From Octopus vulgaris (lineage: Eukaryota), in assembly GCA_951406725.2 (NCBI GenBank), contig OX597817.1:4960001-5024000 (forward strand): 64,000 bases of DNA, in the 5' to 3' direction. The notes beneath the pieces were generated by a model. That model ran no database searches. It saw only the letters and a list, made by a program, of their open reading frames with translations, and was not told where the DNA came from. The position numbers and the translations under genes were made by a program. This document shows positions 239-64,000 of the stretch, piece by piece (positions within the stretch are counted from its first letter, which is position 1; every line of letters starts with the position of its first letter).

Positions 239-443
239 GTAGGTCCCGGGTTGAGTCGGGGTTAACCACAGTAAATAAGGTACTCAATACATAGCAGAGT
301 AAATTAATTTATTTTATAGAAGGAGCTTCTACAGGACTAGAACTGTTTCATTCAAGAGAAATCATCAGGAAGCTCCTGAGCTTCCTGATGATTTCTTTTG
401 AATGAAACAGTTCTAGTCCTGTAGAAGCTCCTTCTATAAAATA
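239..443. mobile_element. Short fold-back element in (TA)n with HHR-like motif; probable Penelope-like pseudo-LTR remnant
   Basis: Flanked by (TA)n on both sides. 310-443 is a near-perfect inverted repeat with its axis at 376/377. The right arm reads CTGATGA(385-391)-tttcttttgaat-GAAAC-agttc. Confidence 0.7.
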
Positions 444-1649
444 TATATATATATATATATATATATATATATATATATATATATATATATATATATATAT
501 ATATATATATATATATATATATGTATGTATATATATTTATGTGCCTATACGGTTTTTATTGCGCCTGCCTGCCTACATTAACTTTATAATACATACACAC
601 AGACACAGACCAATGCAAAACACACGCACACAAGTACACACACGAGCACACATATGTTTACATGGAATATACCCAGCATATATCTGAGAATATCATAGAT
701 TACGAGAGGGCTCAATGCAAAAATATGTATACAGTATACTTTAATGAGTTAACGAGAAAATGTAACTTAGCCTTCATCTTTTCCATAAGATGCATATAAC
801 CAGATTCAAATTATATAAGGCTAGGCTATGAAAAGTCTACACTCACCAAATAACCTTACACTAAAATAAATATTAAGATTGGATAGGCAGTTTATAATTG
901 ATACGTTGGTTGATAGATACTTAATTGGCCATACATATCTATCCGCATTTCAAAGTGCTGCATAAAACTCATTATTCATATGGTTACACTCGCACAGAGA
1001 CGCACCCAATGACAGAGAGAAACTGGAGGATGGTTATAAAATTTCTGCGCGTTTAATTTACATTCCTAGCTGCGAACATCTTTGATATTTTTTTCACACA
1101 TAGATAAGCTCTATCATATCTCAATAAATCCTCTTAAGAATTTTACTCATGTTATCAATGTTTGATGGATTAAGAGCTTTTCAATGTTTGTAGAATTTAG
1201 AATTTAGAATGCTAGAACATAACAGATGTTTGATTTGTTACAAAAATATTTGCCATCTATACTTTTCTTAATTTCACATTGTTTCGATTCTAAGATATAT
1301 GAGGCCAATCAGACGGAGAAATTGTAATGTTCTTACATTTCTTGAAATATTATTGTTGCTTCCTAAGTTAATATACTGTCAAACATGTCATTAATATTCT
1401 ATAAGAATTCAAACTGTATTTGAAGTGTTACTGTACGGTATTCTACTCATTGATATAATGATACGAATTTATAGATTTCTGGTTATGAAATGACTGTTCA
1501 GCGTTATTAATGAAATTATTTGAAATACCATATTTGCTCGCTAAGCTATTTCTTTTAATAGCTTAGTATTGAGGAAATGACAGTATCCATAGCTTTTGTA
1601 GGGTCATCGAGACCTGTTTCACGAGTACTTTAATATTCCGCTCAAATTC

Positions 1650-2130
1650 TCTAAGTTGACGACAGCGGAAATGGCATGGGAGGAGCTGGAATTAGAATGA
1701 GGGCATGAAGCTAGGGGACTTAGCTAGGAACAGGCTCTTGGAGGCTGGAAATATCATTGGTTGGTGAGAGACTTACAACTGTGTTGAGAGTGCCTAAGTT
1801 GGGTTGCATGTGGTCAGCATGTAGAGGCTAATGTATCAGCAGTAACGAGACAGTGGAGGGTGATAAGCTTGTAGGCCAGTGACTGGTTCGAATCTACGAG
1901 AAACTTTATTCTACTGGACACTGCTCATGGAGCAAAACATGATGTGTAGTGGAGAATGGGAAGATTCTACAAAGTTGATTGTGATGTTTGGAAGGCGGTA
2001 CAGGATGAAAGGTGAATGGAGTTATCCTACTTTGTTTGAATGATAATATTCTAAACGTCGAGAAGTTAAGAGCTGTCCAGTTAGTGAGAAAATGCTTTGT
2101 AGGTCTGGATGACATTTGCCAAAACTAATA
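1650..2130 (-). mobile_element. Possible very degenerate Penelope-like element fragment (RT thumb/linker region)
   Basis: Minus-strand RITPFTFHP resembles the PLE RIPLVLTYHP motif. The rest is too decayed to confirm. Confidence 0.25.
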
Positions 2131-2210
2131 CAGCGTCAAACTATTACACCTGTTTGTTGTTTATACATCTGATCTGTCTTCGTCTTCTGTTTTTCAGTGA
2201 ATTTCAACTA

Positions 2211-3040
2211 TACACGCACACACACACACACACACACACACACACACACACACACACACACACACATATATATATATATATATATATATATATATATATA
2301 TACACATATATATATATACATATATACATCCATATATATACATATGTCAATATATATACATATCTGTATATACATATTTATATATACATATTTATATATA
2401 CATATTTATACATGCATATTTATGCATACATATTTATACATACATATTTATACATACATATGTATATATATACATACATATTTAAACATATATATTTATA
2501 CATACATATTTATACATATGTATTTATACATATATATTTATACATATATATATAGATAGATAGATAGATAGATAGATAGATAGATAGATTGATAGATAGA
2601 TAGATAGATAGATAGATAGATAGATAGATAGATAGATAGATAGATAGATAGATAGATACATAGATACATAGATAGATAGATAGATACATAGATAGATAGA
2701 TAGATAGATAGATACATAGATACATAGATAGATAGATAGATAGATAGATAGATAGATAGATAGATAGATAGATAGATAGATAGATAGATAGATAGATAGA
2801 TAGATAGATAGATAGAGATTGATAGATTGATAGATACATAGATACATAGATAGATAGAGATAGATAGATAGATAGATAGATAGATAGATAGATAGATAGA
2901 TAGATAGATAGATAGATAGATGGATGGATAGATAGATAAATAGATAGATAGATAGATAGATAGATAGATAGATAGATAGATAGATAGATAGATAGATAGA
3001 TAAATTGCTGACAGACACAATCACACACACACACACAATC
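2211..3040. repeat. Compound microsatellite (CA)n-(TA)n-degenerate TACATA-(GATA)n
   Basis: Directly visible; source of the spurious HT/IY/YLSI ORFs. Confidence 0.98.
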
Positions 3041-3069
3041 ATAGATATTGTGATGCTTTCTTATTTGCT

Positions 3070-3830
3070 TCATTTGTCATGTTACAGTAAAGGAAGCCAA
3101 GCATTGAATGTAGAGTCCAGAGTGTTGCACCATCTGAAGCCAATTTTCTTGTTCTTTTATTGAACAGTTCATGTTCTTCGAAGTAAAGAACTCCTTTACT
3201 GAAGACTCTACCACAACTTGGTTGGTGATGCGTTACGAGCACAGGAAGTGAGCCATGAATTGGAACAAGTAATACGAGTGATATTACTCCGCAATCATAA
3301 AGTGCGAAAGCTTTGGTGAAAGCAGGAGCCAGTTTCCGGAACCTGGCACCAAATATGGGCATTTCGAATACAAGGTGTTGCTGCATCCAGTGGAATTAAC
3401 AGGAGATAGATAATCCACAACGAGGTCGTTCCAGACCGTGAACCATCAATGTTAACCCGTACTCCAAACAGGTTGATCAGCTCTATGCCATCATGCGGCA
3501 AATATATATCCGGCATTGTTTAACAGAAAGCGAACACTTCTGCAGAATTACAACGCGAAACCTTATACGGTTCGAGCAGCTCGTACTACACTCCAGAAAC
3601 TATGCCACGCCTAGCATATAGTCCACAAGTGGCTTCATCGGAGTATTAGTTGTTCTGATCCTCGATCCACTTCCTGTACCCGTGAGGCTTCATGAACCAA
3701 GAGGGGGTGGAAGCTTCAGTGAATGAGTTCTTAACCTTAAAGAACAAGAACTGGTATCAGGTTGTATAAAAGAACTGTTAGAAAAATATATGCGGACGGT
3801 ACAAAACAGTGGCCTCTACTTCGAATACAA
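3070..3830 (+). pseudogene. mariner-type transposase pseudogene (catalytic and C-terminal region)
   Basis: Frameshifted plus-strand translation gives IIHNEVVPD..TINVNPYSKQVDQL, LLQNYNAKPY (cf. LLHDNARPH), AYSPQVASSEY*LF (cf. YSPDLAPSDYHLF) and EFLTLKNKNWYQ..VQNSGLYFE. Confidence 0.85.
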
Positions 3831-62219: not shown

Positions 62220-62810
62220 GAGTGTGCTCCTGGATCTTCAACACTTTCTCATCTAGAGATTTTCGTACTATTATCCTTATCTTTCTCATTTCGCCTGTCC
62301 TCACTTTGAATGTTGGTATCCTCTATGGTCTCTAACCATGATTAGAAATATTGTAAAAATTGAAGTACCCTAGAAATCAATCACGAAAAAGAAGATAGAT
62401 CACATGACAGGTCTTGGTTATTGAGATCGGCTTCAGAAGCTCAAACTATTCTGTACAGTGACGCCATAAACACTCATTAGTATGATGAGGCAACATATTC
62501 CAAAAGCACTGCCCATATGATGTTGGAATTAGATTTTAAATTCATCCAAGGCTTAGTCGCCGTGTCATCTGTCGAATGACATTGCTCTCTTTAACATCAT
62601 GCCAAGACAGATAAGAGAAGAATACGGTATCATAACTTTGAAAAGTTTCTCGGACATATACCTCCAATAAATTCCAGATAAAGCAAATTTGCTAGGATAC
62701 AACTTTGCAAACATTAACACTTTGATCGAATAGGCTATGGGGTACCAAAAACTGACAGTAATATAAACCATCATTAAATGTAATTTCACGGTGGCGGTAG
62801 AGAGGTAGTC
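62220..62810 (+). mobile_element. Degenerate CR1-group LINE 3' region
   Basis: FSSRD..PHFECWYPLWS (cf. RPHLEY..PLWSP), LGY*DRLQKLKLF and LFNIMPRQIR...LQ*IPD. Confidence 0.7.
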
Positions 62811-63075
62811 ACAGACTATATGAATTATGGTAGAAACTTACCTAAATATGCATGCATGTATGTATTTAAGTATGTATGTATGTATGTATGTATGTATGTA
62901 TGTATGTATGTATGTATGTATGTATGTATGTATGTATGTATGCATGTATATATATATATATACATAGAGAGAGAGAGAGAGAGAGAGAGAGAGAGAGAGA
63001 GAGATAGATAGATAGATAGATAGATAGATAGATAGATAGATAGATAGATAGATAGATAGATAGATAGATAGACAG

Positions 63076-63300
63076 ATGATAGCCGTCCCATCAACACACA
63101 ACACACCTACAGCACAATCCGCTCGTTGATGAGCTCTTAGCTGATTTGTAAGACCAGCTGCTGACTGACAAGGTTTAAAACACAAGTGACAGATATTATT
63201 CAATTTCTTCTATATCTTTGCCCTTGGGAATCTGATTCTGAAAGAATGCTTTCATGAGCTATTATATGACCTCGAACCCACAAGAGTCAACAAGAGAAAC
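63076..63300 (-). mobile_element. RTE-type LINE 3' end fragment
   Basis: ICHLCFKPCQSAAGLTNQLRAH (C..C...C.S..GL..H.R.H motif), then a short tail running into (TCTA)n. Confidence 0.55.
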
Positions 63301-63359
63301 AGAAACAGGCAGAAACAAGGAAAATGCCACTTGTATTTTAACACTATGCAAATATTCTT

Positions 63360-63535
63360 TTAAAAAACCACTCTTTTAATTTTTCCAAAATTCAATTGTT
63401 TTCCATACTTACAGTTGAAAAGTTTCAATGACTAAGACCGGTACTGAAATGTTCTTTAAAAAATGATTTTAGCATTTTCTATCTTGACATTTTTTCCATA
63501 TATATCAACTCGTGTGTTCCTTTTCAACCTTCTAC
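63360..63535 (+). mobile_element. Degenerate U3:A8 HHR-motif element beside a (CA)/(TA) microsatellite
   Basis: cag-TTGAAAA(63415-63421)-gtttcaatgact-aag-ACCGGT-A-ctg; the GAA is mutated. Confidence 0.5.
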
Positions 63536-63587
63536 ACACACATACACACACACATGTATATATATATACATATATACATATATATAT

Positions 63588-64000
63588 GGTGACCGCTGCC
63601 GGATCAACATTGTTCCCGTCTGCCGAAAAGGCAATTTTTCCAAACACGCCTGCTAGATAAGTTAAATGTGTCTAAATTTGTCTAAAGTCGTAAGACACCT
63701 GCTGTTATCCTGTTATTACCATTCTTGTTTTTATTTTTATTTTTGTTTTTGTTTTTTTGTATTTATATTCGTGTGGCTTCGTCCGTTTTTCTGTCTTTGT
63801 TTCGTTTACATTCGATCCTTTTTCTAAGAAATTTTTCATTGGGGCTGGCCGTTTCTGAGCAATATTAGGATTAATCAGCCGAAATTTGCTATGATGATCC
63901 GGTTTCTGACTGAAGATTAAAGGCTCCGAATGACCCGTCCGTTTTTTGTGTTCGTCCCTTTGTGTATTTCATGTTCTTGTTTCTTTATATATAATTTTAT
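63588..64000 (+). mobile_element. (TA)n-flanked repeat, possible PLE pseudo-LTR
   Basis: Begins after (TA)n, T-rich, and contains CTGAAGA(63910-63916)-ttaaaggctcc-GAA. Confidence 0.35.

Follow-up and report, generated by a model that had tools for sequence, protein, structure and literature searches.

What are the short, ribozyme-bearing elements scattered through a stretch of the Octopus vulgaris genome, and how did they arise? The window analysed here is the whole stretch of 64,000 nucleotides (GenBank assembly GCA_951406725.2, contig OX597817.1, positions 4,960,001 to 5,024,000 of the forward strand; coordinates below count from its first letter). An earlier note, made from the letters alone, described in it at least five unrelated families of microsatellite-associated mini-elements sharing a minimal hammerhead ribozyme architecture, and took them to be non-autonomous, retrozyme-like derivatives of Penelope-like elements (PLEs). 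We find that the motifs are real and their origin ordinary, in that they represent new families of a known PLE/hammerhead kind: the five mini-elements are almost certainly the 5'-truncated pseudo-long-terminal-repeat (pLTR) ends of five different protein-coding Penelope-like retrotransposons. One point is new, namely that many copies, judged by where their sequences break off, likely stop where the RNA of the element begins. The wider issue is the way in which PLEs come to insert as inverted, tailed copies, and the part played by their ribozyme.

The mini-elements were found where the earlier note had placed them, and the five families have no primary similarity to each other (blastn, E<0.01). 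One grouping changes: the copy at 63415, joined to the family at 56493-56841 for its similar core, belongs to a sixth, unrelated family with four other copies among the loci that we fetched from the genome (designated L). Most insertions lie in (TA)n; some consist of a single arm, others of two arms placed head to head, of which one is tailed, as follows.

239..446: family 1 insertion in (TA)n, from the end of a Hydra-type PLE; the arm with the tail is 239-376 (-) and the inverted one, without a tail, 378-446 (+)
323..375 (-): family 1 predicted hammerhead, CUGAUGA core with C3 at 368; mirror copy (+) with C3 at 385
11761..11942 (-): family 2 copy of a divergent subfamily, Neptune-type PLE end; core CUGUAGA at 11876
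12841..13058 (-): family 2 copy without inverted arm; core CUGUUGA at 12973, 4-bp stem II, ACGU stem III
50380..50588 (-): further copy of family 2, with its core at 50512
42973..43295: family 3 insertion, from the end of a Nematis-like PLE; the start of the core is missing from the tailed arm, 42973-43154 (-), and there is an inverted arm (+)
56494..56841: family 4 insertion, from the end of a Neptune-type PLE; two arms meet head to head at the core, the + arm bearing the tail
58527..58703: family 5 insertion, from the end of an old Neptune-type PLE; the GAA is damaged on the + arm (58581-58703), and there is a short inverted arm
21191..21284 (-): degenerate family 5 copy, duplicated at 34312-34405
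63385..63480 (+): sixth family; U3:A8 core and ACCGGU stem III, the window copy having lost its GAA
368(-), 385(+), 11876(-), 12973(-), 50512(-), 56645(-): strict hammerhead matches, non-redundant set

Both arms of the family 1 insertion stop at the 5' strand of stem I, and it matches the full element at L183 at 99%. Matches were counted across the 2.8-Gb genome: exact tail matches number 2081 for family 1 and 7621 for family 2, the most abundant family, while the free variant of family 3 has 1498 matches and family 4 has 1296, both arms counted. Family 5, whose copies are 85-91% identical, is old. Inverted 5'-truncated copies with a one-sided tail occur in families 1, 3, 4 and 5; none of 30 family 2 copies has an inverted arm.

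The evidence for parentage comes from longer copies. Each of the five families continues elsewhere in the genome into an open reading frame (ORF) for a reverse transcriptase (RT) and a GIY-YIG endonuclease, although most copies are broken. The link to PLE termini that the earlier note proposed to check thus holds for all five, and its description of the families as non-autonomous does not: all five are ends of autonomous-type PLEs with ORF-bearing copies in the genome. One parent is of Hydra type (family 1), three are of Neptune type (families 2, 4 and 5) and one is Nematis-like (family 3), where clade names denote motifs compared by eye with the text of Craig et al. (2021, PMC8557442) rather than positions on a tree, and Neptune is itself paraphyletic. 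For family 1, 11 of 18 matches extend identically beyond the tail into an RT ORF, and L183 has the order pLTR, ORF, long low-complexity region, pLTR over ~4.3 kb; the ORFs at L180, L182 and L183 carry RWR, DKT, CNCPDKTTC, CxxC and CxH and lack CCHH, in keeping with the RWK-type motif, DKT, CxCX5C linker, missing CCHH and (TA)n target of the Hydra clade. Longer family 2 copies (L206, L214, L216, L300) reach an RT, a CxxxxCxxC linker and GIY-YIG. Family 3 is linked to an ORF at L340, L341, L346 and L354, and L367 is a full pLTR-ORF-pLTR unit with a Nematis-like endonuclease; its CX2-5CxxC linker with a short spacer resembles, by eye, the Nematis rows. No continuation into an ORF was retrieved with the family 3 variant carried by a Helitron (see below) as query, and the failure of those searches is due to the choice of that variant. 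Family 4 is joined to an ORF at L040 and L121, with RT and GIY-YIG directly upstream at L121 and a Pfam RVT_1 match (E=7e-6) that falls below the curated cut-off and is the only Pfam match for any of the five families, and family 5 has a decayed RT and endonuclease ~1.5 kb upstream at L295 and L299. By eye, families 2, 4 and 5 share the CX2-5CxxC linker with long spacer and the CCHH endonuclease of Neptune. Junctions shared by at least 11 loci argue against chance insertion of a mini-element beside an unrelated ORF. Partial tandems of the form pLTR-ORF-pLTR were seen for family 1 (L183) and family 3 (L367).

Other PLE remains were noted as well. A decayed RT fragment akin to the family 3 ORF (tblastn, E=2e-25) lies in the window at 6895-7634 (-), joined to none of the listed elements, and other Neptune-type PLE ORFs lie inside or beside family 1 and 2 elements at L181, L183 and L301, which would fit insertion of PLEs into the TA tracts of one another.

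The ribozyme motifs themselves are predicted minimal type I hammerheads of the PLE type in (TA)n, as had been proposed. A strict type I descriptor, composed after the sequences had been seen, gave seven matches in the window, six of them non-redundant; in 150 Markov shuffles the mean was 0.047 matches, and no shuffle had more than 2. Several of the window copies listed before, namely those of families 3 and 5 and the copy at 63415, are damaged. A similar strict descriptor matched 121 times in 1.35 Mb of fetched loci and never in the same DNA reversed; since the loci were picked for these families, this demonstrates descriptor specificity only. A loose descriptor was unselective (20 matches in the window against 5-13 in shuffles), and allowing it one core mismatch gave a count no higher than in shuffles. 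Among the 150 of 173 Rfam matches listed for the window at E<=1 there was no hammerhead, only miRNA-like hairpin noise. Folding of the isolated motifs gave z-scores of -1.4, -1.0 and -1.3 for families 1-3, so that energy alone lends no support to a hammerhead fold in these families, although stems I and III of family 1 are present in its predicted minimum free energy structure. The structure is better supported by subfamily variation, in which changes fall at position 7 and in loop II and leave the stems and the remaining core as they are. In family 1, for example, a motif with stem I AGCUUC/GAAGCU, a weak stem II, GAA, a 4-bp stem III and a GUA site (H17 at 330), position 7 (U/A) and loop II differ between subfamilies and the stems are unchanged; position 7 is U, C or A among family 2 copies and takes all four bases in family 5.

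The general form NUGANNA-GAA-H that the note had assigned to every family holds for some and not for others. Intact copies of families 1, 3 and 4 have the complete type I core (N3-U-G-A-N-N8-A, GAA, UH, stems I-III and a 3:8 pair), and families 2 and 5 lack the combination of A6 with a Watson-Crick 3:8 pair. In family 2 the in-register core is CUGUUGA or CUGUAGA, with U6 in 69 of 76 matched copies and A6 in 5. The majority core of family 5 is C-UUGACGA, the conserved C preceding UUGANGA in L238, L496, L502 and other copies, and its sequence may be read either as U3.G8 with a bulged C or as an extra U in the core with C3:G8 kept. Position 3:8 covaries as expected: families 1 and 2 have C:G, family 4 has U:A (UUGAAAA at 56645- and 56648+), family 3 has G:C and one further match has A:U. 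In the window, the inverted family 3 arm (+) has a GUGAACA core at 43173-43179 (G3:C8), and its G10.1-C11.1 pair is broken. Stem III is palindromic in four families (ACGT, AATATT, ACCGGT, AGCGCT) and near-palindromic in family 1, as described before. The variant list of Lunse et al. may already contain these cores. The flanks of L302, L259 and L024 hold one match each of further unrelated type I motifs, namely CUGUUGA with a different stem II (a second case of U6), UUGAUAA and AUGAAUA (A3:U8).

Where the copies end bears on how they were made. In three families the 5' ends gather a short way upstream of the ribozyme, at sites that resemble promoters. Because best-hit searches favour the query's own ends, ends were counted in samples drawn by tail pattern. 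For family 1 (n = 68; 70 places less L462, mis-fetched, and L441, a duplicate), 25 tailed arms end between -8 and -4 from C3, 15 extend further upstream and 28 are shorter, while none ends within +24..+52, the interval that holds the predicted cut site (+39). This cluster marks the A of AGCUUC, which follows a TATAAAT at 29 nt, and two subfamilies keep that distance although the sequence between has diverged. Among the first 100 of 2508 matches, counted by hand, 52 continue upstream and 48 stop a few bases from that A. For family 2, 14 of 30 ends fall at -85..-74 around TCAGAT, and for family 3, 11 of 30 tailed arms end at -25..-12, again around TCAGAT. Copies that carry the ORF start (L124, L133, L326, L339) begin at the same points, which implies that ORF-bearing RNA ends there. 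The bases beyond the end point may hold a further trace. Reverse-copying of a cap G is expected to add an untemplated C, and the 18 family 1 arms ending at GAAGCT continue in the cDNA with T (8 arms), C (6) or G (4); the 10 T or G cases that overlap with the other arm are explained by it, as possibly is one of the six C cases, and none of five long family 1 references has C at that position.

The two arms of an insertion have common subfamily variants in 16 of 17 and in 29 of 29 family 1 insertions (the second count including best-hit loci). The tail-less arm often extends further 5' than the tailed one; it could not, then, have been produced by snap-back of a single cDNA, and the arrangement agrees with two cDNAs that were primed at a single break. 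A crude search turned up 12-13-nt target-site repeats in 5 of 50 family 3 copies. At L124, L133 and L134, a family 1 arm that stops at the predicted start site abuts a position inside the ORF from a second pass, which suggests that the template was switched from the 5' end of the RNA. A 3' splice site was considered for the family 3 boundary (L340, L354, L334) and rejected: branch point, pyrimidine tract and CAG fit, but the copies show no common upstream exon. Sequencing-run contigs of a guessed kind contained no splice joint or end pile-up on either pLTR, and weigh neither for nor against the predicted start sites.

An account of these ends can be built on Poseidon of Anolis (PAc), for which, in the part of the report drawn on here, uncut RNA is the dominant template and no reads end at the cut site (Frangieh et al. 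2024, PMC11167929). Extrapolating from that partial account, the endonuclease would cut AT-rich DNA and the RT would prime from both broken ends. Priming would occur at two internal RNA sites bracketing the tail, and the two cDNAs would then be joined at their 3' ends. We presume that each end of the RNA carries a pLTR. Copies begun in the downstream one would be long and randomly truncated; synthesis begun in the upstream one would run off the RNA 5' end after 140-220 nt and leave a mini-element (families 1-3). Taken as a whole, this model of 5'-incomplete pLTR ends, a hammerhead likely uncut in the copied RNA, twin priming and run-off appears to us quite probable. Its run-off step, that the short copies stop at the RNA start site inferred from sequence, we consider somewhat more probable than otherwise, and we lean slightly towards its specific strong-stop-like form, which would cover thousands of mini-elements and in which priming in the upstream pLTR would be followed by read-through of the uncut hammerhead and run-off at a capped 5' end, sometimes copying the cap G, often with two cDNAs of the same source joined head to head. 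In predicted foldings the whole foldback reaches -119.8 kcal/mol against -15 for the ribozyme alone; in genomic foldbacks the ribozyme is thus predicted to be buried in a long hairpin, and a transcript of such a copy, whose one sense ribozyme pairs with its complement, would be expected to be inactive. Only the pLTR-ORF-pLTR units hold two ribozymes in direct order, ~4.3 kb apart.

Several observations weigh against this account. Pfam gives no match for the family 1 and 3 ORFs, so that their assignment rests on motifs, and continuation of family 2 beyond its tail shows no consistent downstream ORF junction (7 matches against 3 in the control). The end samples consist of the first matches on contig C1 and are not random draws. 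A 5'-end cluster is absent from family 4 and diffuse in family 5 (13 of 30 ends at -23..-7). The excess of C after the family 1 end point is 6 of 18 arms, becoming 6 of 8 only once the 10 arms explained by overlap are removed. The 4-nt palindrome AGCT and the edge of stem I both lie at the family 1 hot spot, and TGCA lies at that of family 3, so that microhomology joining can explain part of both clusters. Finally, short transcripts of solo pLTRs would produce identical 5' ends.

The overlap with palindromes leads to an explanation by structure or repair, which we judge improbable though deserving of attention: arms would be truncated at random and then joined or deleted at short palindromes, snapped back on stem I, or self-primed on an antisense template, as proposed in the portion of PMC3846280 consulted. 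It would account for 7 of the 18 family 1 arms ending at GAAGCT, which are perfect palindromes centred on AGCT, for the bases after the end (C, CC, CCT), which also match snap-back onto the complement of stem I, and for family 4, which is without a cluster. It has difficulty with family 2, whose cluster is the sharpest that is not foldback-associated (0 of 30 inverted arms), and with the clusters of families 2 and 3, which share the TCAGAT motif and lie 10-80 nt upstream of stem I; the family 1 arms that abut foreign DNA also stop at the family 1 hot spot (L075, L124, L133, L445), and the distance from TATA to A is kept in two subfamilies despite the diverged spacer.

The identical 5' ends of solo-pLTR transcripts point to a different source, in which promoter-bearing solo pLTRs, acting like short interspersed nuclear elements (SINEs), would supply hammerhead-plus-tail RNAs for copying in trans by PLE protein. 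Such ORF-less copies with a promoter exist (L179, L185, L186), short copies dominate (in family 2, the 7621 tail matches compare with 80 for a 26-mer at the upstream boundary), and non-autonomous PLE derivatives are known in Chlamys, according to the section of PMC8557442 concerned. We nevertheless hold this source to be rather unlikely, since L124, L133, L326 and L339 carry the ORF start yet begin at the same point, short and long copies have subfamily variants in common, and the PAc template needs the first 172 nt of the ORF in the part of PMC11167929 that deals with it, if that holds in these clades. The retrozyme origin of the earlier note, in which self-cleaved, circularised RNAs would be copied into tandem repeats, is largely refuted and in our view very improbable. 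In its favour are the type I hammerheads, with their palindromic stem III, and the relation of retrozymes to pLTRs in the available part of 10.64898/2026.07.22.740005, but no direct tandem of hammerhead units running from cut site to cut site occurs among the window copies, 0 of 68 family 1 copies start at the cut site, the arms are inverted, on opposite strands, and every family has an ORF-bearing parent; neither the direct tandem units nor the lack of an autonomous ORF-bearing form that mark retrozymes is found here.

Many of these features have precedents. Thousands of dispersed minimal hammerheads per genome, derived from truncated PLEs, have been reported in metazoans in the text consulted of Cervera and de la Pena (2014, PMC4209133), and the octopus motifs resemble them in occurring as dispersed single motifs or opposite-strand pairs 100-700 bp apart, with several families per genome, an extra base between 9 and 10.1, a palindromic stem III and a U3:A8 variant. 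They differ from the motifs of the text consulted in the G3:C8 pair of family 3, the fixed U6 of family 2, the C-UUGANGA of family 5 and the 4-bp stem III of family 1; for position 6, the portion of PMC11014351 available to us contains nothing. Within the scope of the text used, the endonuclease-bearing PLEs of PMC8557442 likewise combine a 5'-truncated copy with an adjacent inverted copy, a one-sided tail and (TA)n targets, and share the Hydra motifs (RW-basic, DKT, CxCX5C, no CCHH) of family 1 and the CX2-5CxxC linker of families 2-5, but their tails are 30-40 nt, compared with ~40-85 nt here, and Hydra elements are generally <3 kb, compared with the ~4.3-kb family 1 unit and its long low-complexity 3' region. 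The octopus rows in the portion of its supplement consulted are Naiads, in at least two of four cases. The octopus repeat annotation of PMC13282606 lists Penelope-like families, with no occurrence of 'hammerhead' or 'ribozyme' in its main text.

PAc is similar in its two internal RT start sites bracketing the tail, the extension of both strands and the AT-rich target, and differs in that the part of PMC11167929 consulted has no description of genomic copies piling up at an inferred transcript start, as they do here. Metazoan non-LTR retrozymes share a type I hammerhead, a short ORF-less copy and a relation to pLTRs, but in the passages concerned (PMC7761336; 10.64898/2026.07.22.740005) they are direct tandems with a ribozyme in each unit, not single or inverted ends with ORF-bearing parents. 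As in the relevant passages on Penelope of Adineta vaga (PMC3846280) and of D. virilis (PMC2377424), a start site or TATA/Inr-like motifs lie within the pLTR, and head-to-head palindromes and solo pLTRs occur; those passages ascribe solo pLTRs to recombination or deletion and palindromes to antisense self-priming, where we propose run-off. No description of start-site-terminated PLE copies was found in the literature searched, whose coverage left out most subscription papers, supplements and Repbase/Dfam, and the term 'strong-stop' is absent from the PLE papers searched.

If run-off is true, the genome records PLE start sites in three clades and gives an in vivo sign that ribozyme cleavage is dispensable for copying, the most abundant family even having a U6 core. 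If short copies stop at a capped start, and none of them at the cut site, an uncut RNA template and twin internal priming in vivo gain support, in clades beyond the one studied in vitro. The analysis yields three exact predicted start sites together with the natural core variants G3:C8, U6 and C-UUGANGA. For annotation it carries a warning, as such mini-families are neither SINEs nor retrozymes and a carrier transposon can inflate their copy counts.

The family 3 copy illustrates the last point, being cargo in a larger unit.

42483..44402 (-): non-autonomous Helitron-type unit with the family 3 insertion as cargo; 5' TC, 3' hairpin and CTAG, then T

All 29 other best-hit loci share the flank on the tail side of the window copy and 28 of 29 share the other flank, so that this copy is not an independent insertion, and its unique fold junction has 644 exact matches. 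The carrier agrees with the Helitron features of a 5' TC, a 3' hairpin with CTRR and tandem arrays; a variant of it forms a 13-unit tandem array (L220-L232; G000:C2:206158675-206186207) with a period of ~2.18 kb. A single family 3 foldback has thus been amplified passively by a Helitron. Helitron-type units, nested and in tandem, are clustered between 42455 and 47420; among them are 271-nt inverted arms at 45928-46494.

The window also contains a 13-kb direct duplication, 8592-21671 being repeated at 21772-34790 with 98% identity and a 100-N gap between the copies, which is likely an uncollapsed haplotype or an assembly artefact. It leaves ~51 kb of non-redundant DNA with ~9 insertions, so that the density given before, about ten copies in ~51 kb, was right, with a slightly lower count. 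The segments 16236-16740, 37531-37747, 18129-18916 and 49633-50103 are older palindromic or inverted-repeat elements with no strict hammerhead match.

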